A stretch of DNA of 64,000 nt, taken from a virus. The notes beneath the pieces are model-generated. The model ran no database searches. It saw nothing but the letters and a program-made list of their open reading frames with translations, and had not been told where the DNA came from. Position 1 is the first letter of the stretch, and the number at the start of each line of letters is the position of its first letter. The stretch lies in the IMG/VR virus record IMGVR_UViG_3300045988_111426. One strand, written 5' to 3'. This document shows positions 29,681 through 62,412 of the stretch, piece after piece. A program made the position numbers and the translations under genes.

Positions 29681-29713
29681 CTTCACATAATAACTATAAC
29701 AAAGATCGTGCCA
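29681..29713 (-). promoter_or_regulatory. conserved TGGCA/TGTTATAGT promoter-like block A
   Basis: Minus-strand read: TGGCACGATCTTTGTTATAGTTATTATGTGAAG. Aligns over ~35 nt with blocks B and C. Confidence 0.55.
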
Positions 29714-29722
29714 GAGTTTCAA

Positions 29723-29900
29723 AGACATGACAGATTTGTCAGTTGTCATATATTCTGTCATGTCTTCTTTAACACTTTGTAACATCTTGTATTACCTCGT
29801 GTCATATACCATAACATTTTTTAACATCTCATGGCACAAATGTCATATGGCACATGTCATATTCTGTCATGTCATAGTTGTCATGTGTTATGTTTGTCAT
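29723..29900 (+). repeat. TGTCAT array A (9 same-strand copies)
   Basis: TGTCAT starts at 29744, 29756, 29800, 29841, 29855, 29865, 29870, 29879 and 29895. A proximal half-palindrome GACATGACAG lies at 29724-29733. Confidence 0.8.
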
Positions 29901-29923
29901 ATCTCGTGTTATATGAAAACAAA

Positions 29924-29957
29924 AGCCCACCTCGGCATATGAGCGTCGAGGTGGGCT
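29924..29957. terminator. bidirectional terminator
   Basis: AAAAGCCCACCTCG...CGAGGTGGGCTTTT: an 11-bp GC-rich stem flanked by A4 and T4. Confidence 0.75.
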
Positions 29958-29981
29958 TTTGTTTTCATCTTCCTTCAGTTG

Positions 29982-30473
29982 TTATTCGAGATCGACAGCT
30001 TCGATTATCAACATCTCGTTGAGTTCACTTCTGCTTAGTGCGATTCCCTTGAGGTTGTTACTTGCTTCAAGGTAGATGCTGACTTCTTCATTTTCTGGCC
30101 AATATGACACGGAATAGTCAACAAAAGAGCCGTCAGCATAGGTCTCATTGATGACAGCAGAGTATTCTCTGACGTTGTTGAAGGATGGAGTGGTTTTCAC
30201 GAGTTCCACAAGCATCCCCTGCACAAGGTCGACGAGGTATTTGTGTGCTTCCTGCCAGTTGCTTACACCCTCAACATAGTGACCTTCGATATTCTCGAGG
30301 TACTCGTTTAAGGATTTCGGATTCTCGATTTCAAGGCGAGCTTCTGCCATATCGTAGTCACCGTAGAAGGTGTCCGATACTGCCTTGTCGTAGTCGTACT
30401 TGATGTTGTGATTAGCTGGTGTAACGCCTTCTTGTGAATTGAAGTAGTACGTGTTGTGACCTGTCATTTCCAT
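29982..30473 (-). CDS. hypothetical acidic protein
   Basis: 163-aa ORF with its own TGTCAT-array/TGGCA promoter block upstream and a bidirectional terminator (29924..29957) downstream. Confidence 0.55.
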   Translation of the reverse strand: MEMTGHNTYYFNSQEGVTPANHNIKYDYDKAVSDTFYGDYDMAEARLEIENPKSLNEYLENIEGHYVEGVSNWQEAHKYLVDLVQGMLVELVKTTPSFNNVREYSAVINETYADGSFVDYSVSYWPENEEVSIYLEASNNLKGIALSRSELNEMLIIEAVDLE

Positions 30474-30535
30474 GAGTTCTGTTCTTTTGCTTTTACCTTT
30501 CGGTGGTGGATGATGATAACTGATTGATCAGAAGA

Positions 30536-30568
30536 TCTTTCACGATAATTATAACAAAGATTATGCCA
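30536..30568 (-). promoter_or_regulatory. conserved TGGCA/TGTTATAAT promoter-like block B
   Basis: Minus-strand read: TGGCATAATCTTTGTTATAATTATCGTGAAAGATC. It contains TGnTATAAT. Confidence 0.55.
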
Positions 30569-30577
30569 AGTTATCTT

Positions 30578-30641
30578 TGTCATGACAAGGTTGTTATATG
30601 CGCTGTCATACGTGTCATACTCATTCTGTCATCTTTGTCAT
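30578..30641 (+). repeat. TGTCAT array B (5 copies)
   Basis: TGTCAT starts at 30578 (within the palindrome TGTCATGACA), 30604, 30613, 30627 and 30636. Confidence 0.8.
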
Positions 30642-30654
30642 ATACTGATTTACA

Positions 30655-30724
30655 GGAAGGTACTTTCCTTGGCTTCTCTTCCTTTTTCTAATATGAAAAC
30701 AGCGAGAGGTATCTCCGAGTTCAA
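30655..30724 (-). promoter_or_regulatory. cassette E6 (minus orientation; upstream arm replaced by terminator hairpin)
   Basis: Minus-strand read: TTG (30724-30722), N20, TGTTTTCA (30701-30694), N21, CCAAGGAAAGTACCTTCC (30672-30655). Confidence 0.5.
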
Positions 30725-30738
30725 CGAAGATACCTCTC
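30704..30738 (-). terminator. terminator after 30773..31555
   Basis: GAGAGGTATCT / AGATACCTCTC 11-bp stem. Confidence 0.55.
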
Positions 30739-30772
30739 TGTGCTTTCGAAGGTATTTTTATATTTTTGATGT

Positions 30773-31555
30773 TTATGCGTTGTTTCTAAACGTTACGCCA
30801 CTATGTCTGTAAACCACAAGACCTTGATAGTTCTTTTCATCAACATAGACGAGTTCGACGAATTGTGGTTCATCAGATCTTTGTCCTTTGAATACAATCG
30901 ACACGTCCGTTGATTTCCCATTCATAAGTCGTATTGGTCTCAAGGGGTCAGATGAAGCTATCTGGCAAATATCCGATTCACCACATTGGAAAAGGTGCAT
31001 CGTGAAGTGCATACCCTTTTTCAGAGTTGCTGGGTTGATCAGAAGCTTCTTTTCCCCCGAAGATATCATCGAATTGTAATTCAGAAGAAGTACGGACTTT
31101 TTATTGTGAATGTCAGTACCACTATTCTGTGTGACATTCAGTACCTCGTATTGAGTGACCAGTGTTTGTTCAATATCAAAAGATGCCGAGGAGAATGATC
31201 TCGTCTTGAATGAATCACAAAACAGTCTATCAATATAAGATTCACCATCTGCAACGCTTGTAGTTCCCTTCCCTGCAACGAGCTTTGCAAATCTTGCATT
31301 ACCAAGATTGTCAATGCTGGCGATCTGTGAATTGCTCTTATCCAGTATAGAAAGTACGTCATCAATATCGGCATTGAGAACTACCTTCTTCAGTGACATT
31401 GTGCTATTCCCTGTGAGGTTAATTATACCTCGAGCAGTGTCGATGATAGAGTCATATGAGTTAAACTTTGATTCTATAATCGACAGGAAGTTGTTTATGA
31501 ACTGTGGAAGTTCTGATACGAATTCGCTTTTACTTAGTTTCTTAAAGCTATCCAT
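30773..31555 (-). CDS. hypothetical protein (probably virion-associated)
   Basis: 260-aa ORF at the end of the giant-fibre operon, followed by hairpin 30704..30738. No motif recognised. Confidence 0.5.
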   Translation of the reverse strand: MDSFKKLSKSEFVSELPQFINNFLSIIESKFNSYDSIIDTARGIINLTGNSTMSLKKVVLNADIDDVLSILDKSNSQIASIDNLGNARFAKLVAGKGTTSVADGESYIDRLFCDSFKTRSFSSASFDIEQTLVTQYEVLNVTQNSGTDIHNKKSVLLLNYNSMISSGEKKLLINPATLKKGMHFTMHLFQCGESDICQIASSDPLRPIRLMNGKSTDVSIVFKGQRSDEPQFVELVYVDEKNYQGLVVYRHSGVTFRNNA

Positions 31556-31563
31556 CTTTTGAT

Positions 31564-31956
31564 TTATTCGTTTTTGTTGTTTATTTCTTTGTATGTGAAT
31601 CTACGACCAGCGAAAGCCCTTACTGCGATGTAGTAAATGTAAGAGAGAATGAAAAACCACATCTGAGAACCAACGCTTCTATCTCTGAAATAAGAGGTTG
31701 ATCTTCGCACCATTGATTGGAAAAGTTCGATATCGGCTTTCAATCTGTCTTCTCGAGTTCCTCCTATTTCGTAAAGCATATCGTGGACTTCACACTCTCC
31801 ACGGAAAAACTCGTGGTGTGGTGGCTTTAGGAACTTGAATATTCCTCCCATAGCACCACAACCATTCGTCTTTGTCTTGTCTATGTCTACCTCGTTAATC
31901 TTCTCCATCTCCATCTTCCCATTCTTCGTCATCAAGAGTGTATTTCGAAAGATCAA
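31564..31956 (-). CDS. phospholipase A2-motif protein (GxG ... HDxxY) with C-terminal hydrophobic helix
   Basis: NGCGAMGG ... ECEVHDMLYEIGGTREDRLKADIELF resembles the Ca-loop plus HDxxY...D catalytic pattern of PLA2-like domains (a DUF1353-like reading is also possible). The start is ambiguous (Met 1, 9, 15 or 17) because of overlap with the upstream ORF. Confidence 0.35.
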   Translation of the reverse strand: MIFRNTLLMTKNGKMEMEKINEVDIDKTKTNGCGAMGGIFKFLKPPHHEFFRGECEVHDMLYEIGGTREDRLKADIELFQSMVRRSTSYFRDRSVGSQMWFFILSYIYYIAVRAFAGRRFTYKEINNKNE

Positions 31957-32464
31957 TGTTCGCTTTCTTCTGCCAACACTTGTTCAAACAGGTTTTTATG
32001 TGTGTGAGAACATGTAAAACAAAGTGCTTATATTGATCAAGCGTTTCTATCTTGTAGATGTAGAAATCATCATCATCGCCTATCTTGATGAACTCTGGGA
32101 GATTTGCACCACCGAGAGCGTTCGTAAGTAGGAAGCCAGTTGACCAGTTGAACTGATTCTCTTGAGATAGGTACAAAGGTTTTGTAACTGGTTCATCTTC
32201 AAGTGTCGTGTAAGAAGACCCAGTGAGAATTTCCTCGTCACATTCCTCGTTGAAGACCGATGATAACAAATCCACTATTTCCTTCGTCGTTGGGCGATGA
32301 TCATACTCTTGTACGCTATAAGTCATATCATCACCTTGACCTTTAATGTCGTAGGCGACTGTGTATTTCTCGTGAAGTGGATCTACGAGGTGGATGAGCT
32401 TGCCATCCACCTCGGGGTTACCACTTTGTCTGTTAGTTATCATCTGGTACGAATCGTTCATCAT
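31895..32464 (-). CDS. hypothetical protein
   Basis: 189-aa ORF overlapping both neighbours by a few codons, in an operon with the giant fibre gene. Confidence 0.5.
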   Translation of the reverse strand: MMNDSYQMITNRQSGNPEVDGKLIHLVDPLHEKYTVAYDIKGQGDDMTYSVQEYDHRPTTKEIVDLLSSVFNEECDEEILTGSSYTTLEDEPVTKPLYLSQENQFNWSTGFLLTNALGGANLPEFIKIGDDDDFYIYKIETLDQYKHFVLHVLTHIKTCLNKCWQKKANIDLSKYTLDDEEWEDGDGED

Positions 32465-35400
32465 ATAGGAATTTGTAATGTTTCAGAGATTTAAATTCTT
32501 CTAAGTTATTTGATATCACGACATTCCCAAGGAAGATTGGAACGTACGTCTCCCAACCAAACGTTTTCCATTTCACGTAGTTGTATTCATCATTACCGAA
32601 ACGGTCGTAACTGTTATTGTGGTCGTAATACAGACAGCAACCATTGAAATCAGTTGCACCAGTGTATGACCTTGGAACAATAGACAATTTCTTACCACTA
32701 TTTACAGTTCTCACTGGAGCGTTACGACCATTGTTGGAAGATTCCCAATCAATCACATAAACGTCCTTTGATCCAACTGGTGAGTATGTCGTTGATTTCT
32801 GAACAGCGATAATACCGTACCACTGTGAATATCTGTTGCCGTTCCAATATTTGAAGTGGTTCATATTGCTACCACCAGAATAATCAACCCCATCTTTGTT
32901 TCTTGCTTGTGTCATAAACACTACAGACTGCATCCATCCATAGCACAGGATCTGTGATTGACTGTATGGATTGAAATGTTTCTGTCCATATTCGTCGTCA
33001 TACACAAACTGCAATCTTGATCTGTTGTACACGCCATCAGTTCCGATACATCTTGAATCGTTTACACCGATTCTTGGATCTGTGAAGAATTTCTCACGAC
33101 CGCTGTCTATATTCGATGAAGAACAACCAGTTATGTTAGCATAGTCAAATCTACCATATGCCGATATCACAAGATGCCAGAAGTAACCAGCTTCTATTCT
33201 GTCGATCGACCTGTACGACGCATGTCTTCTCATGAAGTTCGCCACAGTGTTGGGGTTGTTATGATAACACAACGACGTTCCCTGTTTGAACACCCATTGG
33301 TTTTTGTTGTATCTTGTATCCAAGTGATTGTCGTGATCTTTAGCGTTCACTATGCCTGGGTATGATTGCTTTCTCTTATCGTTTGTACTGTACACGAGAG
33401 GATTGTGTGCTACCCACATCGATTCTTGTTTCGTCCAATCAGGTTCCCAGTCTGCAACCGAATCGCTATTTGTTAGCCATACTTCATAAACTTCGTGCGG
33501 TAGGAAGTCAGTGAGTATCGACGTGTAGAGATATTTTGCATCAGCAGGTACAGCACATCCGAAATCGGGGTTCATGATAGAAAAATCCGAATTGTTCAGA
33601 AGTATGAACTTTATGATCTTCCCATCTGCATCTGTGAAACAAGCACCAACATTCCAAGCTTTCTCGTAGTAGTATTCACCACCAGGTTGTCTCCGAGACC
33701 CAGGACTTGTAAGACCTATTGCTGGATTGTCCTCGTTGTGATATCCTCTGTGCATCATTGGGAACTTCACTCTCTTGAATCCACCAACGTCTATCTTGAC
33801 GTGACCTATGTAGTCTGCTCCTTCGCTTCCATCAGATATTGATCGTCTGTATTTGTAGAGATATTGACTTATGTTCTTTCCGACACAACCATTTCTTGGT
33901 TGTACGTAGATCTGTTTTACAGCATTCTGTCTAAACCATACGAAGTCGAACTTCTTGCCCTCTGGTCTCCGTGGTTCTTCGAGGTTTGATGACCAGATGA
34001 AGTAGTCAGTGTCTGTTTCATAATCATAAACGCCCTTTCTCCAAGATTGTGGTTCATGTACCCAAATACCGCCAGATTCTGCAACGTCGATATCTGCAAC
34101 TTCACAGAGGTCTGGATTTTCATTTGTGTCATATTTCCCAGAATGTCTGTCATGCAGAGGGAACACGACCATCTTTCCTCTCTCTTGTTCCTTTCCTCTG
34201 TACTTTCTACGATTCTCGACGATCTTCTTTACGTGACCACTCATCACATAAGGCTTGTTATAAAGATAACCAGTTTCGTTGTCAAGATTGCTCAGTCTCT
34301 GTGGATCAAGCACGTTCTGTTTCAGACCACGATTATCTACTATCGATTCCGTGACTGCAATTACTGAGTATTCTGGTTGCAGGATAGAAAGTTCGGGGTA
34401 CTGACGTTGCCACTTTTCCAGTTCGGATTCCTCGAGGAAGTTCTCAAGTTCATACTTACCAACAAATCCAGATTCACGACGAAGTGACCCATCAATCGTG
34501 ATCCCTCCCATCAGTTTGTACTTTTCAAAGAAGTCCGTACGACCCTTCTTGGAAACACCATAGATTCTGATGTTCTGAAGATTTGGGAATTCTTGGATGA
34601 TGTCTTCCCAACGAATGTTGTCACAGTTTTCTATCCACAGCTTCGTGATCTTTGATTTATCTTCGAAGTGGATGTTTTCCCAACGGAGATTTCTTAATCC
34701 ACGAAGTTGCAGGAATGTGAACGTTCTGGGAAGCCAAAGTTCCTCGATAAGTGATCCCGATGCAAACGAGATACTCTGCAGTTTCGTACGACGACCATCA
34801 AACTTGCGGAGACGAATATTGCCCGACAAATCAAGTGATGTGAAATTGTCGGATTGGAGACCTTGTACGTTGAGTTCTTCAAGATTTTGACATCCAGTAA
34901 GCGTGAGAGATTGAAGTGTTGTATTCGTATCGGCACATGAAAGGTCAAGCTTCTTCAAGGTCTTACAACTTGAGAAGTCGATATTGTTGAGGATGTACTT
35001 CGAAACCTCACGGAAGTCTATCTCTTGCATTCTCGACGCACCGTATATGAACTGAGGGTCATTGACGATAAGATCCATAAAGAACCTCAGAGAAACCTTG
35101 TAACCATTCTTCTCGTTTGCAAGAATACCGCTCTGTTTTGGAGCACCACTCGTGAACCCATAACCAAAGTTGTATTGCTCTGATGCTTTTATGTGGATCT
35201 CCTTGTTATCTTGAGAGAAGTTGTGAGAGAAGTAGATTCTTATGTTATCTGATCTGTAAGTACCTGCGAGATACTTCGCATCGAGAAGGTCGAATCGGTT
35301 ATTGATGATATACTGACGATGAGATTCTCTGTTCCCTTGAAGTGAATAAAGGTAGTCAAGATTGTTCTCCAGAAGAGGTTTTATGTACTTATGTTCAGAG

Positions 35401-38400
35401 TCCTTGTTATAGATTCTCTTCGACCAGTTGTTCATGAACTCTTCGTTCAAGACGTTCAAGACGTATTCTTTCGACATCACAGATCTGATCTTCTGTGCTG
35501 TTTCTTGAAGTTCGTTCTGAAGTGCCTGTCTTACGAGTTTCCAAAGTTCGGAATCATGACCTGCGTAAGCAAAGTTCTGAATCGATGCGTCGTATGTGTC
35601 TTGGTCGATATCATAATCGTAGATGAGCTTACCATCATTACGAACACCAAGTATAGTATCGTTGTCGTAAGGGATAAAGTACCAAATGTTACCATCCCAC
35701 GTGGCGAACATCATGTTCTTCACTCTCTGGTCGACCATCATGAAGTATTCAGTCATCACGTACCAACCACAGAGGAAGTTGATATCGAAGTAATCTCTCA
35801 CTTCACGCTTGAACTTATCGGGGCGACCCACACAAGACTTGATCCAGCTCCACAATCTTCGAACGTGTCTTTGTCTATCGCCTGCCTGCTCCCAAGTCAT
35901 ATCTTCGGGATATCGGAACTCGAGACCATTCTTGAAGTGTGTGTTCATGTCGTCAGTTTGGAACAGCCCCACAGCATTCGAGTTGTTGAGGAATTCCAAA
36001 CACGTACAACTATCGCCACTGAATCCATAGACGTGGTCAGATTTCGCCTTGTCGTTGTTGAAGTTATACTTGCCGATGTATTTGACATTTCCATCGAGAT
36101 TATCAACGAACATATCGCAAGGCTGACCGTCAACACCTATGCGAACATTGATATCCTGCTTCTGAGGTGGAACGAGGAATCCACACTGCTTGAAGACATC
36201 GTTGACGATGATTGCAACACCAGAGTTGTGGGTAGATGATGATTCAGCAAAGTCGGCTTTCATTGTGAATAGACCTACCTCTGGAGAATTTGGCTTGAAG
36301 GCATACTTTCGCTTTTCCTTGAGGACACCACCCACAGTAAGCGTGTTCTCGGCATCCTTCTTCTTGACATCAAAGTAGAGACGGTAGTTTTTACGTGGAT
36401 AAGTCGTCGATGATGTCCCCTGTATTCTCACTCTACCATGTCTGAGTTCAAATGAGAACTCTTTCCCAAACTTTGAGAAGAAGTCGACATCAAGCGGAAC
36501 TTCGAACTTCTTGTTATTGGTCTTGTCTACAAGAGCGATATCTGCCTTCATCTTCATCACAGATTTTCCCTTTGCGAGAAGTTTCTGCATAGAGACCGCA
36601 CCAGAATCATCAAGAACGTCGTTATCTCTGTAAAGTCTGACAATGTCACTGGGGTTCGGTCTGTCAATGATGTAGTTCATCAAGATTTCATCATCTTGAA
36701 GAGCACGATCATAGATTCTGACAGTTCGAAGATCGACATTTGCAGACGATGAATCCACGACAATGTTTCTGGGTGTTTGATGGAGGATTGAATCGGTGGA
36801 AGGGTACTGTACTGCACCACAACGAACACCATCGACGTAGATTTCAAGGATTCTCGTCTCTGTCTTCTTGGAAAGTACAAAAGTGATCTTGTAGAATCTA
36901 CCAGTGGAGAACTTCGTTTCGACATAAACACCGCTTGATGTCTGGATTCTGGCGGAGATTGGCGTGATAGAAATCCCAACGCCATTGTCAAGAGAATGGA
37001 TGATTGATGATGTTTTATCAGAGATCGTGTTGGTAGAGAATTCGAATTCGAAAGTCTTCCCAGTGATCGTCGGGTCAGTTTCAAATGGTTTATGGTTTAT
37101 TTCTATTCTTGCACCATTTACAAGAGAAAGTGAACCGTTCTTCCAACCCGACGATGAGAAGTTGACGTTATGGAATTCGGTCGAGATCCCCTTATAAGTC
37201 CAAACTGCAGGGTTCGATTCAGTGTTAGAACGACCTCCAGACATAAGTTCCAAGGACATGCTGTCGACAACCTTGTCGATGTCCATTGATGATCTTTCAA
37301 TGACGACTGGGAGGGAGAAAGTGTCGGAAGACGTTTTAATAGAGATCGTCTTTGGAGAGCGGTCGATGAATCTGTTCGTATAAGTTTGATCTATACGGTC
37401 AACGATGATTGAAGATTCTTGATCACCAACCGAAAGATGAATGTTTGCTTTTGCTTTTGAAGGATCGTAGACGTAATAGTTGAACGAGAATTCCTCAAAC
37501 TGGGAGACGACCATCTTGATCTGTTCGCCTGCGTCATAAGTTCTGCCGACCTTGTCATCAAACATAAACAGCGCAAACGGCTTATAAAGATCAACACCTC
37601 TGCGAAGGTGGAAGATTATCGAGTTTGAATGGATCGTCGTACCTGGGACTGACACATCAGTGGTCAAGGTCATCGTATGGATACCAGGTACAATAGAACC
37701 TGCAGGAATCGAGAATGACCCATTTGTGACACCACTCTTCGTGACTGATTGTGATTGAAGCTGTGTGCCATCCATGAGAAGTTTCACATTTTTATCACCT
37801 GCACCAGTTACACGGAAAGGAATGATTATCGTGTCTGCGGATTCATATCCTTGTCCATTTGTGGAGAGCTTGTACGAAGTTTCAAGACGAATGTCGTAAA
37901 CTCTCAATGACTGATACGTTTGCTTCGTCTTTGTTTCTCCTTCTTCGTCTCTGATTGTACACTTTACGTAAATGTCTATCGTACCTTCTCGGAGATAGTC
38001 GTTAATGTCGACACCATAAGTGCCTGCAGAGACATCTTCGTAAGTCTTTGTGAACAGCGTAAGTGCACCATTTTTGATCGTGACTTCAATCTTTGCACGT
38101 ATACCGACCGATTCACCATCGGCATTTTTGTAGTCGTAGGTGTAAGAGAATGTGGAAGTATCACCAAGGCGAATGTGCTTCTTGGTGAGTTCGGACTGTA
38201 ATATAAGCTTTGACTTCTGTATCTGGCCACCGCCACCTCCTCCACCTCCTGCAGGGATAGTCACAGATCCGAACTTCTCACCACGAACTTCGTCATAAAG
38301 AGAAAGAACAACGGATTGACCGTCTTCGGAGAGTTCTGCATCGAGTGAGGAGACCGAGTGTCTCTTCAGTTTCCCGATTTCTTGCGCAACTATAGCATTG

Positions 38401-39455: not shown

Positions 39456-39463
39456 TCTTCAAC

Positions 39464-39480
39464 ATATTTCGTTATTTACC
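39464..39480 (-). promoter_or_regulatory. late-type box (GGTAAATAACGAAATAT)
   Basis: 8 nt upstream of ATG 39455. Confidence 0.55.
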
Positions 39481-39498
39481 GATATGGGCGGATACGGA

Positions 39499-39534
39499 AA
39501 GTCCCACCAGAGGACTTTACCAATGGTGGGACTT
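39499..39534 (-). terminator. terminator after 39540..41972
   Basis: AAGTCCCACC / GGTGGGACTT 10-bp stem. Confidence 0.55.
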
Positions 39535-39539
39535 ACTTT

Positions 39540-41972: not shown

Positions 41973-41982
41973 ATTTTGGAGG

Positions 41983-41999
41983 ATATTTGCTTATTTACC
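41983..41999 (-). promoter_or_regulatory. late-type box (GGTAAATAAGCAAATAT)
   Basis: 10 nt upstream of ATG 41972. Confidence 0.55.
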
Positions 42000-46709: not shown

Positions 46710-46728
46710 ACGTTTTCTTATTTACAAG
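46710..46728 (-). promoter_or_regulatory. late-type box (CTTGTAAATAAGAAAACGT)
   Basis: Upstream of ATG 46680, just after terminator 46743..46776. Confidence 0.5.
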
Positions 46729-52848: not shown

Positions 52849-52860
52849 GCTTTTTCGGAG

Positions 52861-52878
52861 GATATTTGCTTATTTACC
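52861..52878 (-). promoter_or_regulatory. late-type box (GGTAAATAAGCAAATATC)
   Basis: 12 nt upstream of ATG 52848. Confidence 0.55.
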
Positions 52879-52890
52879 TTCCGAGAGCGG

Positions 52891-55800: not shown

Positions 55801-56637
55801 GTTGTCTTGTATCTTCTGTATTACGACATCATTCAGATCGGAATAAAGATAAGTCGTGAGGTTTATGTCATCAGCATAAAGACCGAAGTAATTCTCATAC
55901 TTAAGTTCCGTTGAAGGATCATCAAACAAGAACTCGAAGTTGAAGAGCTTGTGGGATACAAGCGAATGTCTCTTGTAACCTTCAGTGATCCATTTGTCAA
56001 ACTCATAGACACTTTGAGCACCACCGACGAAGTCTTCGATTGATTCTGATACTTGAACAATTGATGATTTTTCCACCGATATACCAGTGTAAGTGACGTG
56101 TTTTTGTATGAAGTCGCATTGCACATGGGAATTTTGGAAAAGTGGGAAATCGGTGAGTTTCTCGAAGTACTTGCCTATTGGGGACTTATGAAGATCGATT
56201 ATCTTCAAGATTTGGCAGTCACGAAGTCTGTCCTTCTTCCCATCTGACTTGTAGATGATGAAGTACTTCGGAAGTTTTTCACCAATGTAAAGTGGGGCAA
56301 AAATCGAAAATTCCTCATCATAAAGCATCGACGTACATCTCTGAACTTTGTAAAGATAGGTCTGATCAACCATGTCCGCATATTTCTCATAGACATAACC
56401 ATCGGGTTTCGTGGGGGATTCGTAGAATATGTTCCGAGGAACATCAGCGAAAACTTTTGAGATATCATCAAAAGGTGCTGATGATACACTAAGTGGTTTC
56501 GTATAAGCTATGCTCGACAAGGTATCATTAACTGGTATTGTGGAAATCTGGAAATCTCCATCTGACTTCACTACAAACTTGATATTGCCAGTTAATAATG
56601 GGTTTGTTCTAACAATTGCTGATGATCTTTTAGACAT
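52891..56637 (-). CDS. large late structural protein (baseplate or fibre), function unknown
   Basis: 1248-aa ORF. Late box at 56648..56665, preceded by terminator 56673..56708. Confidence 0.6.
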   Translation of the reverse strand: MSKRSSAIVRTNPLLTGNIKFVVKSDGDFQISTIPVNDTLSSIAYTKPLSVSSAPFDDISKVFADVPRNIFYESPTKPDGYVYEKYADMVDQTYLYKVQRCTSMLYDEEFSIFAPLYIGEKLPKYFIIYKSDGKKDRLRDCQILKIIDLHKSPIGKYFEKLTDFPLFQNSHVQCDFIQKHVTYTGISVEKSSIVQVSESIEDFVGGAQSVYEFDKWITEGYKRHSLVSHKLFNFEFLFDDPSTELKYENYFGLYADDINLTTYLYSDLNDVVIQKIQDNFKDVDLCLMKTDDAVVDIKNFRKKDFPQYTTTNIFNIRLQGDQEQEPAYNEIIYDASRKPMINTSIKIFIDGKESETILSNTLSNLERGDYGYEKWSRDGWFLTYYNPFGSKEEVLQRIASCLEWVVDALRLYGVKVFVDNDHDRIIVENSTRPSIEFEITSADGTLSLLYEKFSRSDNNFMMSHSNALNCVGKYVKNGNHFERIKHVKKRRHVDMFDIISDTPIYQTKNVIQVYDQTEFTLSVVNFIDICDFDFMLKTKTKRNDILIELGQYTPEEQKTDPDLSKFLGYDVVSIDEKRPLVSLQSVCKWVSEFKDVRLDEYRLNVSEEFGTDNFSPSFNISYPNPKYYTHEFFPISRHPLVEEDGKMSSYFSEPFNELKYCFSSYDYFQEYFTVFGYSFRNGAYSKTDPSENWSIISKNNVGDYVTFFRGVLISITSKNDIDGYRFSSILNVNPNGQSSIRIVRNRRFKNIVMICTISYNDYKISKNNLSFLNLYTMGSQSTKSKDGKIIDGDRIDFEGVSGLLKIGVDSQNNDTIKMQEYDQMFGIELDMRFVSYTDSSIEIDAMINGSPRKLHEWYSLKDDKTFMEIIGVEEDLETNRKNLVMFRSLKCDSLGIYLKHGSLTIKDYNHNSIVIGKSVKKWDNSHEFFTIDDGVVYIEANKPSMEAITTLTPKSLVQHIQSLDPKKKSLKWYLVGGGKNFHNFQHEFVNFSLLREIVENNNFSYTEDRRQDDLQFKFHRPIDLGSMKRYGGKYDPKISKLSTAINPKVSSMIDHYRMSYNDSKDTFDKTINYDIRKENTAFVLGDIRIPEFVYNDHKSLKVTSLPLFGDTSIPYDKSKHFADFTSMFSSKILNLPNSFEITVENWNVDDQGNYSSEINLIDSFLEKFKQDMIDAVDRLGTIDDPRVYVEEYCAKNIGMLYKISDSKMLSNGEVVKDFSISLDQNVIKIHHHTIENVHLEMTISVGLV

Positions 56638-56647
56638 ATTTCGGACA

Positions 56648-56665
56648 AAGTTTCGTTATTTACAA
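56648..56665 (-). promoter_or_regulatory. late-type box (TTGTAAATAACGAAACTT)
   Basis: 10 nt upstream of ATG 56637. Confidence 0.55.
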
Positions 56666-56672
56666 ATATGTC

Positions 56673-56708
56673 GAGAGAGCCGATAGAAAAAGATCTGTCG
56701 GCTCTCTC
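56673..56708 (-). terminator. terminator after ligA
   Basis: GAGAGAGCCGA / TCGGCTCTCTC 11-bp stem. Confidence 0.6.
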
Positions 56709-56730
56709 ATTAATGTTCTGGGGAGGATGA

Positions 56731-58692
56731 TTAGAAGAGTGCTTTTGAAGGATCTATCAACGACTTTTGCTGTTCCTCAATGATCGTCTCCATTCCCAAC
56801 AGTTCTCTAAACTCTGATTCGCTATAAATCCTAATCCCTGCACTCATCGCCTTTTGTTCCTTCGATGATCCACTTCCCTTCTCCTTAATGACAAGATCAG
56901 TAACTACCTTCGTGTATGTTGCAGACACTTTCCCACCATTTTTAACAATAGTGTCTTCCATCGCCTTGTTTCTGAAACCAGTGAAACAGAAAACTCTCCC
57001 TTGATAAATGTCGGATTCTGTGGTTTCTACCTTTGTCTTGAAAGTGAGTACCGAGGACAAGGACTTATAGAAATCGATAAACTTCTTATAGTTTTCCACA
57101 AAGATACCTGCTTGGATATCCCCGAATCCGTTGATTTTGAGAATGTCTGTGGATGAGGGGTAGAAATCTTCTAAGTTTTCCCACGTGAGAGAATACTCAT
57201 CGACGATCCATTGAAGTTTGACTGATCCAAGACTTTGGAACATGTTTGATGCGTGCATAAGACGAGAAATGGTGATGTCGGATATACACTTTTCAAGCGA
57301 ACGGACAATGTTGGAAGAACGCTTGTCTCCAAACTCTGAGAACACACTCGCACGATCTCTGATGACTCTTACTATTTCGTCAGTGTATAAAGAATTCTTG
57401 TCGAAGATCTTCTCATATGTCACATCTGACATTCCTTCAACACCGAGCACTTTGAAGAAGAATATGAACTCTTGTAGATTTCTACCAGAGCATCTCTCAT
57501 TTGGACAATAGACATCAACGAGAGAATCATCAAGAACAATAGGAGATGAACAGTAGGGACATTCTCGGAAGAGATGACCTTCTGTGACCATTTCTCCATA
57601 AGACTTCCATCTTTCTTTCTTTGGAATAGAGTGAATTCTTGGAATCACCTTTCCAGATCTCTTGATGATAATCTCTTCACCGCATCTTAGTCCATTGTCA
57701 CGGACATAACTCGCATTGTCGACGTAGATGTTGTTGCCACACATAGCACCATCAATGAGGACTTTATCGGTGGTGATAGTTGGGTTGAAAGTCCCATCTT
57801 TCCCGATGAACCAATTCAAGGATCTAATAATCACTTTCTTTGTATCACCAAACGATCCCTTATAAGCAATAGCGAACTTTGGATTTCCGATAGAGTTGCG
57901 ACCAAGAGAATCTGCAACAGAGAGGTCATTGATATCAATCACAAGACCATCGATTTCAAACTCAAGGATAAACTCTTGATAAGTTGTTGATAGGAATTCT
58001 TCGGTTATGTCTTCAAAGTCGACAAGAATGTACCGAACAGGTATCTTGTTGAGAGTGTTCAACCTGTCGATCATCTCCTGCTTTGTCTTATAAGAACCAG
58101 CATAACTGGTGTACTTCATAAAGACAAAGTCTCGAAGCTCCTCCGAAGACCTTGATCGTGGATTGAGCTTTCCTGCGACCATGTTTCTCACATTCTTGTA
58201 TTCTGATGAGTACTTCTCTGAGAATACGCTCTGTGGGATGATAAGCTCACCGACTATTTCTTCATCATCTTTAAAAAGTGGTTCTATAAGTGAGAAATGG
58301 TGAGAAATAGAAAAGCTCATATTCTCACGACCTTTCACGAGTGCTGTCACACTTCCATCTTCTGATATTTTCACCCCACAAGACACACCATCATACTTTG
58401 GTGTGACGATGAACTTCTGAGACTGGAGGTTATTTTTAGAGACCCACTCACGGAATTCCTCGATTGTCTTGATTTTCTCGAGACCATACATCGGGATCGA
58501 GTTTTCTACACGAGCGTGAGAAACACGACCATCGAAAAGTCTCGTACACGTGACCAGAGAATAGTGATTATACGCCTTATCATAGTCTTCATCAGAGGCA
58601 GTTGGAAATCCAGAGCGATATTCATCGTTTCTCTCACGTAACCATTCTCTCAAAAGATCGAGGTCTAAGGAACAGATGTCGTCAATATTCAT
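56731..58692 (-). CDS. ligA: NAD-dependent DNA ligase
   Basis: Adenylation motif TPKYDGVS (KxDG), OB region, Cys4 zinc finger CPYCSSPIV...CPNERC, HhH region and C-terminal BRCT (GRVFCFTGF...). The 653-aa length is typical of LigA. Confidence 0.88.
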   Translation of the reverse strand: MNIDDICSLDLDLLREWLRERNDEYRSGFPTASDEDYDKAYNHYSLVTCTRLFDGRVSHARVENSIPMYGLEKIKTIEEFREWVSKNNLQSQKFIVTPKYDGVSCGVKISEDGSVTALVKGRENMSFSISHHFSLIEPLFKDDEEIVGELIIPQSVFSEKYSSEYKNVRNMVAGKLNPRSRSSEELRDFVFMKYTSYAGSYKTKQEMIDRLNTLNKIPVRYILVDFEDITEEFLSTTYQEFILEFEIDGLVIDINDLSVADSLGRNSIGNPKFAIAYKGSFGDTKKVIIRSLNWFIGKDGTFNPTITTDKVLIDGAMCGNNIYVDNASYVRDNGLRCGEEIIIKRSGKVIPRIHSIPKKERWKSYGEMVTEGHLFRECPYCSSPIVLDDSLVDVYCPNERCSGRNLQEFIFFFKVLGVEGMSDVTYEKIFDKNSLYTDEIVRVIRDRASVFSEFGDKRSSNIVRSLEKCISDITISRLMHASNMFQSLGSVKLQWIVDEYSLTWENLEDFYPSSTDILKINGFGDIQAGIFVENYKKFIDFYKSLSSVLTFKTKVETTESDIYQGRVFCFTGFRNKAMEDTIVKNGGKVSATYTKVVTDLVIKEKGSGSSKEQKAMSAGIRIYSESEFRELLGMETIIEEQQKSLIDPSKALF

Positions 58693-58762
58693 ATCTTAAG
58701 AGATCTTTTTTAGTGTTTTGTACGATTCTTATCATAAGAACATACTTTCCTTATCACAGAGA

Positions 58763-58828
58763 GGTACTTTCCTTGCGCTCTGATAGGTCTTGTGGGGTGA
58801 AAATAGCACAAATAAGCGATGACCTCAA
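58763..58828 (-). promoter_or_regulatory. cassette E9 (minus orientation; upstream arm replaced by terminator hairpin)
   Basis: Minus-strand read: TTG (58828-58826), N20, TATTTTCA (58805-58798), N21, GCAAGGAAAGTACC (58776-58763). It lies upstream of ligA. Confidence 0.5.
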
Positions 58829-58850
58829 GAGAGAGGTTCTCTTGAGGTCA
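58820..58850 (-). terminator. terminator after 58883..59278
   Basis: TGACCTCAAGAGA / TCTCTTGAGGTCA 13-bp stem with a 5-nt loop. Confidence 0.6.
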
Positions 58851-58882
58851 TTATAGATTAAAGATTGTGTTATTGGAATCTG

Positions 58883-59278
58883 TTAGTACTTGAACAATAA
58901 TTTCACTGCTTCTACGTGAGATTTCTGTCTTTCCCAAGACTTCTTATTCTTCTTGATAGATTCGATAACTTCCACAGATTGTTCCGTTTCGAGCATTGTA
59001 TCGAGATCTGAAATGTGGTTATCACAGACCTTGATAAGCTCGTTTACCTTATCCTCATTTGAGAATTGTGACATGACCTGCGAAAGATTCCACAGAAGTC
59101 GGTGAGATTTTTCGAGTTGTTCAAACTCATATGCGTCGACAGATAACTCATCATCCTCGCCATTGTTACTCATGTCTTGAATGTAAGAGTAGATCTTTTG
59201 CAAGGTGACATTTAGAATCTTTGCATCGAACGAGGCATATTCTACTGGTACTGGACTAATCATTGATTTTTCTTCCAT
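58883..59278 (-). CDS. hypothetical protein
   Basis: 131-aa ORF overlapping the end of 59256..60704 by 23 nt, followed by terminator 58820..58850. Confidence 0.5.
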   Translation of the reverse strand: MEEKSMISPVPVEYASFDAKILNVTLQKIYSYIQDMSNNGEDDELSVDAYEFEQLEKSHRLLWNLSQVMSQFSNEDKVNELIKVCDNHISDLDTMLETEQSVEVIESIKKNKKSWERQKSHVEAVKLLFKY

Positions 59279-60704
59279 CTTCGAGTTTTCTATCGTTTTT
59301 CTTAATATGTTCTATGAGCTTCTTGTTCAACACGACCATTTCATCAAACTTGGACGAGAGTGCGTTATATCTGTCGATGATTTGCATCATTGTCGCCATT
59401 ATTCTTGAAGAATCATCATTTACAGAGTGATGAGAAACGGCATCACCATAGTGGAAATCGGTCTTAAAGTTCAGTTTATATGACAGCGAATTACCCTGCT
59501 GATATGTGACGTTATCATGTCTTATTTTTCTTACTGTCGAGAGAACAGCAGATTCCGTGTTATATGGGACTACATCACCAAGGAACAGAACACCATAAAG
59601 ATTGGTCACTGTTTCCCCAGAAGAATCTTCAACATCGTAATAGACGAGGATACAGTTGAAATCAAAGCTTCGTGCACCAGACTTCGTATTAAAATCACCG
59701 AGCGTGGATATTCTATCAGAATGTGTCTTGTTATATTCTTCGATCTGCTTGTAAGATGACACCTCAAAGTCGATCGAGATACCATCAAGTGATGATCTTT
59801 TGAAAGTGACTGGATCAGAACCATCTGCGTATGATCTCGTGATTTCTACATTCGTGGCATTTCCGAACTCTTTATCGGTATAGTAACCATTTGGATACAA
59901 CGTCGATTTCTCTTGCATCCACTGTTGAGAATAGGTCAGTGTGCCTGGTTGTGTGTCACAGTCATAAACCGCTTCCACAGAAAGTCCCATGTCGGTGATG
60001 TCTCTCGAACTTCTACCGTTTATAAGTTCAGATTGCGCACGATGTCTTACCACAGTCTGTTCGTTATAGTTCTTATCGGATATTGATCTGAACATCACTT
60101 CTGGAGTAGAACCGTGATCAGAGGGAATGTTGATATAAGCTTCTGAATAAGAATCACCGTCGACGATATTCTCTCTTACAGAAATGTCGATATCACCGAT
60201 GTATTGAACAACTTTGTCGTATATTTCAGATTTTTCCTCGGTGAAGCGTTTGTCTTTGTCCGCTTTGAACTGTGACACCTCGGGCTGTTCTTCAAATCGG
60301 ATCGCCCCAGTTTCCTTGAGCCACTTGAAGAAGATTCTCTCGGATGCATTTCGAAGAGTGGCACGGTCATAAGTGTCGGATTCAAGGAGAATGCTTTCCA
60401 TGTTGAGGATGTAGTTTTGGAAAGATTCCGAGAGAATCTTCCTTGCACGGTCATGGATAAGGAGCGTCTTCTGACTATAGTCCGAGGTGTAGAAGCCTTC
60501 TATTCTTCGTGCATCAAGCGTATTTCTCTGAGAGGTATTTGTTTTAGATGCAACGATAGGTGGAAGATTGAGAAGTGCAAACTTTGAAAACTTAAATCCG
60601 TTCGCATCATTCCCAGATGAAATCGTCTTTACATCTTCACCAGACGATTTAAAAGTTATAAATGTTCCCCTTTTCAGAAGTGGAAGAAGAGGTGTATAAG
60701 ACAT
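59256..60704 (-). CDS. late structural protein, function unknown
   Basis: 482-aa ORF. Canonical late box at 60715..60732, 10 nt upstream of the ATG. Confidence 0.55.
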   Translation of the reverse strand: MSYTPLLPLLKRGTFITFKSSGEDVKTISSGNDANGFKFSKFALLNLPPIVASKTNTSQRNTLDARRIEGFYTSDYSQKTLLIHDRARKILSESFQNYILNMESILLESDTYDRATLRNASERIFFKWLKETGAIRFEEQPEVSQFKADKDKRFTEEKSEIYDKVVQYIGDIDISVRENIVDGDSYSEAYINIPSDHGSTPEVMFRSISDKNYNEQTVVRHRAQSELINGRSSRDITDMGLSVEAVYDCDTQPGTLTYSQQWMQEKSTLYPNGYYTDKEFGNATNVEITRSYADGSDPVTFKRSSLDGISIDFEVSSYKQIEEYNKTHSDRISTLGDFNTKSGARSFDFNCILVYYDVEDSSGETVTNLYGVLFLGDVVPYNTESAVLSTVRKIRHDNVTYQQGNSLSYKLNFKTDFHYGDAVSHHSVNDDSSRIMATMMQIIDRYNALSSKFDEMVVLNKKLIEHIKKNDRKLEDGRKIND

Positions 60705-60714
60705 GTTCTCGAGA

Positions 60715-60732
60715 ATATTTCGTTATTTAAAC
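60715..60732 (-). promoter_or_regulatory. late-type box (GTTTAAATAACGAAATAT)
   Basis: 10 nt upstream of ATG 60704. Overlaps the stop of the Hint-like ORF. Confidence 0.55.
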
Positions 60733-61403
60733 TTCTGTTTCTGACGGAACAGAAAGTATATCAAACGATCGAGAAATGTCTTCGTCCTTTTATTCCTATA
60801 GAAAAGTTCGAAGATTGACACTGATCCATGGCTTTCTTCATCTTTGATCTTTACTTCCACCTTTGTGTCAGAAGTTACACAATTGTGATTCAGAAGTCCA
60901 TCGGAGAAGTAAAGCCTGTCACACGACACCGAGACATCATAAGTCATATGTGGGAAGTAGGAACGTTCCACACTTATGAGCTTTGAAACACCACCTTCTA
61001 AGTTTATGATGTAAATGTGTCTGTGAGAAACATCAATCTTCCTTCTGAAGAAAGACAAACAAGAAGATATCCCAAACTTCTCAAGAGTGAAGATTCCGTA
61101 AGTTTCCGTGATTAGTGGATGATCTTTGGATATCACGGTCTTTTTACCATCTTCAAACCAGAGTTCATAAAGATGCTCCATTTGGCATCTATGAACTTTC
61201 TGAAGTTGTCTTGTGTTATGGGGATGAAGTCTGCTGTTTATGCATCCCGATTTGTCATTTTTACATTCGTGTGAGAGAACACGGAAGTTGGAAGATACGA
61301 GAAATGTCTCCAAAGTTTCATCTTTGGAGACATTTCTGAACTTCAGCAATCTTTCTGAAGATTCTATGATGTAGAGAAGTAGAGATGCTAAAAATTTCCT
61401 CAT
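60723..61403 (-). CDS. Hint/intein-like domain protein
   Basis: VISKDHPLIT (block-B-like TxxH). MTYDVSVSCDRLYFSDGLLNHN (block F/G-like, ending HN) is followed immediately by CVTSDTKVEVKIKD...SVSIFELF (block-A-like C..DT.V). Confidence 0.35.
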   Translation of the reverse strand: MRKFLASLLLYIIESSERLLKFRNVSKDETLETFLVSSNFRVLSHECKNDKSGCINSRLHPHNTRQLQKVHRCQMEHLYELWFEDGKKTVISKDHPLITETYGIFTLEKFGISSCLSFFRRKIDVSHRHIYIINLEGGVSKLISVERSYFPHMTYDVSVSCDRLYFSDGLLNHNCVTSDTKVEVKIKDEESHGSVSIFELFYRNKRTKTFLDRLIYFLFRQKQKFK

Positions 61404-62239
61404 CGATTAAGACTAAAATCGTTATAGTTCTTCGTTGTCACTGCAGAGATGAATCCACCCTTACCGCCGACACGACAGCGAACGAACCCCTTCATATTTA
61501 GGGTGGAAATAGTCCCAGCGATAGCGTGATCACCGTCCACAACGTCGGATGCACGGATGACATCACGCATTTGTTGTTCCATTGATCGTACTATTGCCTT
61601 GTAAACGATCCATTCATTCTCGGTGAGGAACTGGAGACAAGGTTCGTTGGATTGGGCGAGTTCTTCTACGAATTCATAGCTTGCAAGACCATACTTGATG
61701 CTGTTGGTCTTGAGCATCTTCTGACGACGACTACGAGACACCTTCTCGCCTGTGAGAGTTATCTTTTCTTGCTCTTCGTCTTGCTGTTGTTCTTGAGCAT
61801 CTTCGTCGATGATATCTTCGTTGTTATCCACACTGGTGAAATTAAGCTCGTGTTTTTCGCCATCAAGAAGATAAAGGACATGTCCCTTCATGTTGGAAGC
61901 ATCGTCGAAGTTGATCGATATCTCAACGACATCTGTGCATTCTATGCCTTCATCATCGATGGAGTTGAGGATCTTGCAGATGAATTCCATCTGTTCTACC
62001 GTCATTACGGATTGATGACCGTTGTAGATATCGTTCGTCTGACGTGGCTTGAACGAGATGAAGTCGTCTGACCAAGCTATGAACTGTTCGTATGCGTCTT
62101 TGTCGGTGCAGTTTGCGTTCTCATCTACGAGGAATTTGACCCCATTGTGGTAGATTGAGCGGGTTTGTCCACGCTTAGTGCATGAGTTATAGACGTTAAG
62201 CAAAGAGCTGTACTTGAGGTTGAGGATCTGAGTTGCCAT
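61400..62239 (-). CDS. hypothetical protein, possible C-terminal winged-helix
   Basis: 279-aa ORF, first gene behind TGTCAT array C and the TGGCA promoter block. Acidic central linker. No firm motif. Confidence 0.5.
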   Translation of the reverse strand: MATQILNLKYSSLLNVYNSCTKRGQTRSIYHNGVKFLVDENANCTDKDAYEQFIAWSDDFISFKPRQTNDIYNGHQSVMTVEQMEFICKILNSIDDEGIECTDVVEISINFDDASNMKGHVLYLLDGEKHELNFTSVDNNEDIIDEDAQEQQQDEEQEKITLTGEKVSRSRRQKMLKTNSIKYGLASYEFVEELAQSNEPCLQFLTENEWIVYKAIVRSMEQQMRDVIRASDVVDGDHAIAGTISTLNMKGFVRCRVGGKGGFISAVTTKNYNDFSLNR

Positions 62240-62282
62240 GATCGGAATTGTTGTTTAGTTGAATTGATTGATTGATCCGAGT

Positions 62283-62317
62283 GATCTTTCATAACAGTTA
62301 TAACAAAAATCGTGCCA
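62283..62317 (-). promoter_or_regulatory. conserved TGGCA/TGTTATAAC promoter-like block C
   Basis: Minus-strand read: TGGCACGATTTTTGTTATAACTGTTATGAAAGATC. Confidence 0.55.
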
Positions 62318-62326
62318 AATCATCAC

Positions 62327-62412
62327 TGTCATGACAAAGTTGTCATATTCTGTCATCTTTGTCATACTTCGTGTCATGTGTCTGTCATGTCATTCGTGTC
62401 ATATTTTGTCAT
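62327..62412 (+). repeat. TGTCAT array C (9 copies)
   Basis: TGTCAT starts at 62327 (palindrome TGTCATGACA), 62341, 62351, 62360, 62372, 62383, 62388, 62397 and 62407. Spacing is mostly 9-14 bp. Confidence 0.8.

Follow-up and report, generated by a model that had tools for sequence, protein, structure and literature searches.

Three dense clusters of the hexamer TGTCAT, each adjoining a nearly identical promoter-like block, lie in a 64,000-nucleotide (nt) stretch of IMG/VR record IMGVR_UViG_3300045988_111426, and they raise the question of which protein binds the clusters and which RNA polymerase reads the block. The stretch is hereafter called the window, and all coordinates refer to it. It belongs to a large myovirus with a T4-type portal and a tail sheath that most strongly resembles its counterparts in Flavobacterium phage MaF61 and the Prevotella Lak phages (28–39% identity). 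A Bacteroidota host is likely because of this tail sheath kinship, the absence of Shine-Dalgarno sequences from its genes, and the bacterial homologues of its MORN-repeat protein, all of which are from Bacteroidota. We consider it probable that the three loci (modules A, B, and C) are terminator-insulated sigma-54 promoters, whose enhancer of 6–11 units was copied from the host heat-shock enhancer and is probably used by a host enhancer-binding protein.

Three clustered arrays of TGTCAT units

A sequence-only reading of the window had reported nine, five, and nine same-strand copies of TGTCAT in three arrays, and our recount of every TGTCAT agreed with it in number and coordinates. Read from the promoters on the minus strand, the unit is ATGACA. 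The arrays and the sites at their promoter-proximal ends are as follows.

29723–29900, minus strand: candidate enhancer array A, nine ATGACA units in promoter orientation (plus-strand TGTCAT at 29744, 29756, 29800, 29841, 29855, 29865, 29870, 29879, and 29895; one inverted copy at 29727–29732)
29727–29742, minus strand: promoter-proximal inverted pair of array A, CTGACA-AATC-TGTCAT
30578–30641, minus strand: candidate enhancer array B, five ATGACA units including the palindrome TGTCATGACA (plus-strand TGTCAT at 30578, 30604, 30613, 30627, and 30636; inverted copy at 30582)
30578–30587: palindrome TGTCATGACA of array B, 10 nt from the −24 box
62327–62412, minus strand: candidate enhancer array C, nine ATGACA units (plus-strand TGTCAT at 62327, 62341, 62351, 62360, 62372, 62383, 62388, 62397, and 62407; one inverted copy at 62331)
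62327–62346: promoter-proximal full site of array C, ATGACA-ACTT-TGTCAT, overlapping the palindrome TGTCATGACA

In each array, the inverted copy is at the promoter-proximal end, and rereading of the sequence showed the palindromes beside the promoter as they had been described, TGTCATGACA in arrays B and C and GACATGACAG in array A. The whole window holds 79 TGTCAT compared to 75 ± 8 by chance, indicating that clustering, not abundance, is the signal of the arrays; the hexamer is dense only as clusters. The largest same-strand cluster contained 8–9 copies per 90 base pairs (bp), compared to a maximum of 2–3 in 100 first-order Markov simulations.

The arrays of this focal phage and its close relatives gave the unit consensus A-Y-ATGACA-R, with units spaced by 9 bp (32 cases), 10 bp (24), 11 bp (7), 12 bp (26), and 14 bp (36). 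In the focal phage, the units are mainly direct half-site repeats, such that each array consists of one promoter-side full site and many half-sites. Measured from the −24 box, they extend from about −14 to −186 nt, and the nearest full site is centred 16–22 nt from the GG of that box. The interior of array A (~29775–29830) additionally carries a second repeat, (A/G)TGTTA, at ~10-bp spacing (GATGTTACAAAGTGTTAAAGAA, ATGTTAAAAAATGTTA), which is kept in relatives, for example at ~9400–9480 of contig L166. Such repeats in A-type arrays may be units that have degenerated, or a different protein may bind them.

The promoter block and its −24/−12 geometry

As a 19-nt sequence, TGGCAYRATYTTTGTTATA, the block was found at only three sites in the window, all on the minus strand and each adjoining an array. 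Allowing three mismatches returned the same three sites only, where 0.2 was expected.

29695–29713, minus strand: putative sigma-54-type promoter A, TGGCACGATCTTTGTTATA; −24 box TGGCAC at 29713–29708, −12 box TTGT at 29702–29699; transcription would start near 29686–29688
30550–30568, minus strand: putative sigma-54-type promoter B, TGGCATAATCTTTGTTATA; −24 box at 30568–30563, −12 box TTGT at 30557–30554
62299–62317, minus strand: putative sigma-54-type promoter C, TGGCACGATTTTTGTTATA; −24 box at 62317–62312, −12 box TTGT at 62306–62303

The consensus of sigma-54 promoters is TGGCACG-N4-TTGCW, in which GG and GC (occasionally GT) are 10 nt apart. Transcription from such promoters begins ~12 nt downstream of the −12 box and requires RpoN together with an activator that hydrolyses ATP. 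The shape of the block, TGGCAC-N5-TTGT, has this −24/−12 spacing, that is, GG-N10-G(C/T). Promoters A and C showed a single mismatch to TGGCACGNNNNTTGCW, C to T at −12, and they are the sole intergenic pair of one-mismatch matches to TGGCACGNNNNTTGCW that also carries arrays. Promoter B reads TGGCATAATCTTTGT in the same comparison; its orthologues read TGGTACGATCTTTG(C/T)TATA, the one in contig L024 having TTGC. Judged by its letters, the block fits a sigma-54 −24/−12 promoter, not an extended −10 or MotA-type promoter.

The earlier description of these blocks as promoter-like and directed at minus-strand genes was supported. In contrast, the same reading had interpreted the block as an extended −10 element (TGnTATAAT) with an activator box at about −30, and this was not supported: the conserved core is GG-N10-G(C/T), and the TATAAT-like part drifts. 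The likeness it had seen to T4 MotA-dependent promoters was likewise not supported, as the block contains no TGCTT MotA box, its TGGCAC is separated from the TATAAT-like hexamer by 9 nt, and TGGCAC is centred near −24.5, not −30. A site at ~5141–5175 that had been taken for a degenerate relative resembles the block only in its downstream half (TTATAG..ATGTGAA) and in its leader, and it falls outside the promoter class because it has neither a GG box at −24 nor an array.

The primary sigma factor of Bacteroidota uses −33 TTTG and −7 TAnnTTTG, not TATAAT. A promoter of this type was considered for the block and rejected; RATYTTTG fits 7 of the 8 positions of the −7 box, but a correctly spaced −33 box is missing. 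No canonical promoter of this class was found in any intergenic region of the window.

Arrays and blocks in close relatives

The block is present in IMG/VR contigs of 145–152 kilobases (kb), in three copies each, and ATGACA units were observed upstream of every copy. A fourth module type exists outside the window. Close relatives are 85–93% identical in DNA, and their unit number ranges from 4 to 15. The array C region measured 44, 71, 79, 93, 102, 103, or 106 nt among relatives, and the differences are not multiples of three, indicating that the arrays are non-coding. Coding repeats were thereby ruled out, and the plus-strand open reading frames (ORFs) over the arrays, previously called spurious, can indeed be regarded as such. 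The arrays are non-coding, keep their motif though copy number varies, and are always coupled to the block; these properties supported the earlier view that they are multimeric protein-binding sites, and we predict that they are of the enhancer type.

A segment at 29885–30624, which carries gene B, the promoter and terminator of this gene, and a portion of the arrays, is absent from six relatives (L015, L019, L021, L154, L155, and L157). The breakpoints fall inside arrays A and B, indicating that the arrays also act as recombination points. From these junctions, gain and loss of the gene B cassette is attributed to recombination between arrays.

Outside this group, blastn of the modules against GenBank phages gave no match, and no module was found in the whole genome of MaF61, the closest cultured relative, or in a 5.9-kb leftward extension beyond the window. 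A search with a neighbouring gene of 189 amino acids (aa) gave two homologues, and the distant contig stops 84 nt before the module region. Scanning IMG/VR for three ATGACA units 3–6 nt apart was uninformative; among the matches listed, most were in-frame tandem repeats and microsatellites.

Conservation in distant relatives

Homologues of the MORN-repeat protein and of the product of the first module C gene led to more distant contigs. Their promoter cores are listed with the identity of the protein through which each contig was found.

L162 and L164, 55–60% identity: core TGGCACAATCTTTGT, also written TGGCACAATCTTTGTTATAA
L166, 85% identity: core TGGCACGATTTTTGTA, also written TGGCACGATTTTTGTAATAG
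L167, 54% identity: cores CGGCACAGCTTTTGT and TGGCACGACCTTTGT, also written CGGCACAGCTTTTGTAATAA and TGGCACGACCTTTGTAACAT
L168 (190-kb contig), 32% identity: three copies of TGGAACGCTTTTTGCT, also written TGGAACGCTTTTTGCTTTTTTAATAGTATAAT

As neighbour-gene protein identity decreased from 91% to 32%, all relatives kept GG-N10-G(C/T) within TGGMAC-N5-TTGY. The TATAAT-like part, however, varied (TTATAAT, TAATAGT, and TAACATT), and in L168 the TATAAT-like run is 11 nt further from the conserved TGGAAC-N5-TTGC, where the −12 context is TTGCT. Because the distant relatives kept GG-N10-G(C/T) and not the TATAAT-like part, the promoters were assigned to the sigma-54 type.

TGACA/TGTCA units were found upstream of all these promoters, although the third copy in L168 has a single palindrome only. 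The orientation of the units relative to the promoter is flipped in L167, many units form inverted pairs, and the smallest L168 module contains one perfect palindrome, ATATGACAATTTGTCATAT. These three features indicate that the functional unit is the palindrome ATGACA-N3/4-TGTCAT. The full sites of L167 and L168 are of the N3 form. Their units lie 50–140 nt upstream of the −24 box (about −80 to −170) behind an AT-rich spacer, which is the classical enhancer position; the palindromes are 88 and 131 nt from the GG in L168, and 76, 98, and 120 nt in L167. The B module of L166 is still present, but its array and its good promoter match (TGGTACGGTTTTCCA) are both gone, suggesting that array and promoter work as one unit.

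The palindrome at host heat-shock promoters

The pattern obtained from the phage (ATGACA-N3/4-TGTCAT, N55–85, TGGHAC-N5-TTGY) was scanned in 185,579 bacterial and archaeal species genomes. The scan gave 118 loci compared to ~25 by chance, the latter being a rough estimate. At least 56 of the 118 belong to Bacteroidota or the allied Ignavibacteriota and Chlorobi. At 40 loci, all within the Bacteroidota group, the first downstream gene is a heat-shock gene (dnaK at 30, hsp20 at 6, htrA at 3, and groES at 1); the dnaK loci include those of Parapedobacter, Mucilaginibacter, Pedobacter, Alistipes, Alloprevotella, Muribaculaceae, and Saprospiraceae. Gene calls were verified with Pfam for one hsp20 locus and one htrA locus, and the others were read by eye from sequence signatures. 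Sigma-54 promoters have been found in silico to be enriched at GroEL/ES, IbpA, GrpE, DnaJ, and DnaK in Bacteroidota (PMC12316311).

In the 40 host promoters, the palindrome centre is 73–74, 84–85, or 93–94 nt from the GG, that is, in steps of one helical turn, and each promoter has one palindrome with no more than one or two additional units. TTGT forms the −12 box of 31 of these 40 promoters, with a T/A-rich run behind it; therefore, TGTTATAAT of the phage is the normal look of this promoter class. The half-site of the focal arrays is identical to the host upstream half-site. A matrix built from the 40 host promoters scored phage promoters C, A, and B at 18.6, 16.7, and 12.1, which were ranks 1–3 of 128,000 window positions, over a background of −34 ± 10.

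The sequence-only reading had assigned the arrays to a phage transcription factor. A protein-binding array is retained from that proposal, whereas a phage origin of the binder is less likely, since the same palindrome precedes the host sigma-54 promoters of dnaK, groES, hsp20, and htrA; a host enhancer-binding protein is a more likely candidate than a phage-encoded one. The best reading of this shared site is that the phage copied, or converged on, the control region of the host sigma-54 heat-shock regulon.

Similar arrangements were also observed elsewhere. In beta- and other proteobacteria (L173, L174, L196, L211, L240, and L281) and in Methylococcaceae (L212), 2–4 TGTCATGACA palindromes precede canonical sigma-54 promoters, and at the proteobacterial loci the downstream gene encodes a conserved 67–70-aa protein (MTEKKNW...FVW) with no Pfam family. 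These arrays suggest a widespread enhancer-binding protein with a TGTCA-type site. Three unrelated, GC-rich viral contigs (L289, 3300025889_003561; L290, 3300015360_000081; L291, 3300048899_000022) carry ATGACA-N4-TGTCAT before TGGCAC-N5-TTGC, as arrays of at least five in L290 and L291 and as a single site in L289. Cassettes of enhancer and sigma-54 promoter may thus be present in other phages as well.

Proposed mechanism and points that weigh against it

In the proposed mechanism, host RNA polymerase with sigma-54 would sit on the block as a closed complex, and the host heat-shock enhancer-binding ATPase would load onto the array and remodel this complex, thereby starting transcription. Perturbation of proteostasis by infection would render the host activator active, such that the phage operons, with their RNA- and DNA-repair genes and genes of no assigned function, would fire in step with this proteotoxic stress. 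The extra half-sites would raise the local concentration of the activator and may also draw it off host promoters. Across ~566 kb of family sequence, neither a GAFTGA motif nor an RpoN box was detected; hence, both the activator and sigma-54 would be host-encoded or lie in the ~40% of the ~150-kb genome outside that search.

Several observations weigh against this reading. Sites for enhancer-binding proteins usually lie 70–200 nt upstream, and the bound protein normally reaches the promoter by looping over a distance of at least 70 nt. The focal arrays, however, abut the promoter, with the nearest full site 16–22 nt upstream of the GG and outside the 73–94 nt of the host promoters. Most of their units are direct half-site repeats at 9, 10, 12, and 14 bp, not palindromes. 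The host palindrome has an N3 spacer in 39 of 40 promoters, whereas the focal full sites are N4 (ATGACA-ACTT-TGTCAT in C and CTGACA-AATC-TGTCAT in A). The downstream genes encode no heat-shock protein, chaperone, or protease, but a membrane protein, a MORN-repeat protein, RtcB, an exonuclease, and proteins with no assigned function. In addition, the block is conserved over 22 nt, including an ATY spacer and TATAA, which is more than sigma-54 alone needs; a second factor, such as a phage factor, or an overlapping promoter at this extra-conserved block is therefore possible. The arm GGTACTTTCCTTGCA of a hairpin element that recurs in the window shows GG-N10-GC too, indicating that this resemblance can arise otherwise. 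Finally, support for the link to the host comes from how coherent the downstream genes are and not from a measured rate of false positives.

A wider interpretation, which we put forward only tentatively, is that a virulent phage of the jumbo type, infecting Bacteroidota of the gut or mouth, has no middle activator of its own and plugs its operons into the host sigma-54 heat-shock circuit, its arrays both timing expression and soaking up the activator so as to weaken the chaperone response. Gain and loss of units and exchange of whole cassettes between arrays would then be the evolutionary signature of a phage–host tug-of-war over the activator.

Alternative explanations

A phage-encoded activator or repressor may instead bind the arrays, with the block being read by host polymerase carrying the primary sigma factor (as an extended −10 promoter) or by a phage-modified polymerase, similarly to a MotA/AsiA-like middle system. 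Amplification of the array is peculiar to this phage lineage, as hosts have one palindrome and 0–1 extra units; conservation of the block extends over 22 nt and takes in TTATAA; promoter B contains a perfect TGTTATAAT; the product of the first module C gene shows, in a model of low confidence, a C-terminal helix-helix-hairpin compatible with a winged helix; and ~40% of the ~150-kb genome lies outside the searched sequence. Nevertheless, we regard this explanation as unlikely. The primary sigma factor of Bacteroidota prefers −33 TTTG and −7 TAnnTTTG, of which the window has no intergenic example, and the 9-nt gap between TGGCAC and the hexamer suits neither a −35 box nor a −30 MotA box. In L168, the TATAAT-like run is shifted by 11 nt while GG-N10-GC is kept. 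The half-site is also identical to the host site upstream of sigma-54 heat-shock promoters, and scans of the window proteins against Pfam, PHROGs, and NCBIfam showed no MotA, AsiA, or helix-turn-helix family, which counts further against a phage factor.

The arrays could also be mainly decoys or sinks that, with dozens of half-sites on each genome copy, titrate the host heat-shock activator and blunt the stress response, with promoter activation being secondary. We consider this improbable, as every array is tied in a fixed arrangement to a leader and a sigma-54-type promoter that is strongly conserved, one of the L168 modules contains just a single palindrome, and the B module of L166 lost its array and its promoter match (TGGTACGGTTTTCCA) together. 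These observations are set against the 6–11 units per phage module compared to one palindrome per host promoter, the fast change of copy number between close relatives, and the many lone half-sites too near the promoter for looping. It is very improbable that the arrays are iterons or other replication-initiation, partition, or packaging sites (origin, centromere-like, or pac), which would agree with short direct repeats about one helical turn apart at 3–4 places per genome, with the association of T4 origins with middle promoters, and with the arrays being recombination hot spots, but not with their constant position upstream of the same promoter type, their identity with a host transcriptional upstream site, the absence of an adjacent AT-rich unwinding element and of a nearby initiator or Par family, and a promoter coupling that is kept although unit orientation and distance vary by lineage. 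Iterons and centromere-like repeats usually occupy a single locus beside an initiator or partition gene and an AT-rich unwinding region.

Comparison with known systems

The pairing of sigma-54 promoters with enhancers is well established in bacteria. Like the promoters served by the AAA+ enhancer-binding proteins NtrC at glnAp2 and PspF at pspA, the phage modules combine a −24 GG and a −12 G(C/T) 10 nt apart with upstream palindromes, a multiplicity of sites favouring the assembly of oligomers, and a site position that matches in L167 and L168; the E. coli pspA promoter itself reads TGGCACG-N4-TTGT. Unlike these systems, the phage modules lie in a virulent-type genome, and the focal sites abut the −24 box and are mostly half-site direct repeats. 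The Bacteroidota heat-shock regulon shares with the modules the identical 6-bp half-site, TTGGCAC..TTGT followed by a T/A-rich run, and the top matrix scores. It differs in having one N3 palindrome at 73–94 nt from the GG, compared to arrays with N4 at 16–22 nt, and in driving chaperones, which the phage modules do not. Because both promoter distance and gene type fail to agree, the phage module is better described as a mimic or derivative of the heat-shock control regions than as a member of them.

T4 encodes MotA and AsiA, and its MotA box, (a/t)(a/t)(a/t)TGCTT(t/c)A, is centred at −30 and lies 12 ± 1 bp from the sigma-70 −10 box. The T4 middle promoters resemble the modules as a class distinct from late promoters, with a conserved box upstream of an A/T-rich hexamer and genes of nucleic-acid metabolism. 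However, the phage block has no TGCTT at −30 and a gap of 9 nt instead of 12 ± 1, and T4 has no upstream arrays; a MotA-type promoter was rejected on the missing TGCTT, the 9-nt gap, and the lack of a MotA or AsiA family among the window proteins scanned. The Pho boxes of PhoB (CTGTCATAWAWCTGTCAY) have nearly the same unit, (C)TGTCATA, in tandem direct repeats upstream of a promoter. They have an 11-bp period, replace the −35 box, and are read along transcription, whereas the phage units are spaced 9/10/12/14 bp in the opposite orientation. A Pho box had been considered for the unit CTGTCATA, and it was ruled out by spacing, ATGACA orientation, and the −24/−12 promoter type. On sequence grounds, the modules are therefore classed as neither MotA-type middle promoters nor Pho box arrays, and they are probably not iteron sets.

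A literature search, with subscription journals outside it, found no sigma-54 enhancer cassettes in phage genomes and no lytic-type phage that mimics a host stress regulon. It likewise found no description of ATGACA-N3-TGTCAT or of a Bacteroidota heat-shock enhancer site, although prior work may exist. If the sigma-54 enhancer reading is true, the modules would represent a new way of timing a phage gene class, through the host sensor of proteotoxic stress instead of an encoded activator. ATGACA-N3-TGTCAT would then be a concrete, testable site at which the activator of the Bacteroidota heat-shock regulon binds, a regulon relevant to major gut and oral bacteria. The modules would also provide compact, insulated, stress-inducible promoter parts for Bacteroidota genetics, and site arrays would be seen to evolve fast and to serve as recombination points that move gene cassettes.

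Layout of the modules and their genes

Along the minus strand, each module runs in the order of intrinsic terminator, array, promoter block, A/C-rich leader of 55–85 nt, and genes.

29914–29966, minus strand: intrinsic terminator, stem GCCCACCTCG / CGAGGTGGGC with flanking A and T runs, from the sequence and a terminator scan
30694–30738, minus strand: intrinsic terminator upstream of module B, 14-bp stem followed by a T run, from the terminator scan
25127–29629, minus strand: genes downstream of promoter A, as the putative extent of the operon
29306–29629, minus strand: 107-aa membrane protein, module A
27468–29258, minus strand: 596-aa MORN-repeat protein, module A
26179–27375, minus strand: RNA ligase RtcB, module A
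25127–26179, minus strand: 5′-3′ exonuclease, module A
29982–30473, minus strand: gene B, 163 aa, no assigned function, putatively under promoter B
58883–62239, minus strand: genes downstream of promoter C (279, 226, 482, and 131 aa), no function assigned
61400–62239, minus strand: first gene of module C, 279 aa
56731–58692, minus strand: NAD-dependent DNA ligase gene, after the module C genes
62419–62434, plus strand: late-type promoter variant GGAAGGTACATAAACG, which bounds module C and is outside it
62443–63177, plus strand: divergent neck-protein gene, T4 gp13-like (Pfam Phage_T4_gp13 on the L162 orthologue)

The predicted terminator at 29914–29966 closes the upstream unit (gene 29982–30473) and insulates module A. 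The gene set of the modules, namely RtcB, the 5′-3′ exonuclease, the genes with no assigned function, and DNA ligase further down, fits a pre-late class. The C-terminal 80 residues of the 279-aa protein, a candidate DNA binder in the earlier sequence-only reading, are invariant across relatives. Searches of this protein against PDB profiles and NCBIfam were empty, and its AlphaFold2 model, with a mean predicted local distance difference test score of 43, was unusable; the C-terminal helix-helix-hairpin is compatible with a winged helix, at a confidence that is too low.

The phage rtcB (26179–27375) lies downstream of a sigma-54-type promoter, and in enterobacteria sigma-54, with RtcR as activator, controls rtcBA (PMC9879122). 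This parallel may be a coincidence. Small palindromes were observed on the minus strand just downstream of the blocks, at the presumed start, at 29672–29687 (A), ~30521–30540 (B), and ~62270–62290 (C). The sequence is TGTGAA-gat-TTCACA in A, modules B and C carry GATC-N4/5-GATC, and in two relatives (L007 and L022) both sides are changed to give GACC-TTCT-GGTC. These palindromes could be a 5′ hairpin or a dimer-binding site. The 226-aa ORF at 60723–61403 gave a weak, sub-threshold intein-splicing match, and the 400-aa ORF at 3852–5054 contains a partial family-B DNA polymerase domain only; taken jointly, these two ORFs hint that the polymerase is split or interrupted by an intein.

Other sequence elements in the window

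A late-type motif, GGTAAATAA(C/G)nAAATAT, was found 10–25 nt upstream of the start codons of large structural genes and recalls the T4 late promoter TATAAATA.

11521–11529, 20316–20324, 24693–24701, and 39472–39480, minus strand: GGTAAATAA motif
41991–41999, 46718–46726, 52870–52878, and 56656–56664, minus strand: GGTAAATAA motif
62423–62431, plus strand: variant of the motif

The short core of this motif is not enriched in the window, and its signal is the fixed position before genes. A 248-aa protein of contig L025 was considered as a T4 gp55-like late sigma factor and withdrawn, as PHROGs and PDB searches gave it no support.

An element of ~95 nt, with arms GGTACTTTCCTTGCA ... TGCAAGGAAAGTACC and a conserved interior (..GCTATTTTCATATTCTTGAA..), recurs between genes as a hairpin. 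The GGTACTTTCCTTGCA repeat had been considered as a promoter and was rejected, because it is one arm of this hairpin and has no obvious promoter orientation. The element had no Rfam match.

5769, 6020, 6235, 12086, 12185, 20719, 30659, 42742, and 58763, plus strand: hairpin arms
6310, 42816, and 47805, minus strand: hairpin arms

RNA folding of 6215–6335 gave a free energy (dG) of −36.5 and a z-score of −5.4. A single hairpin arm was also observed just to the right of array B.

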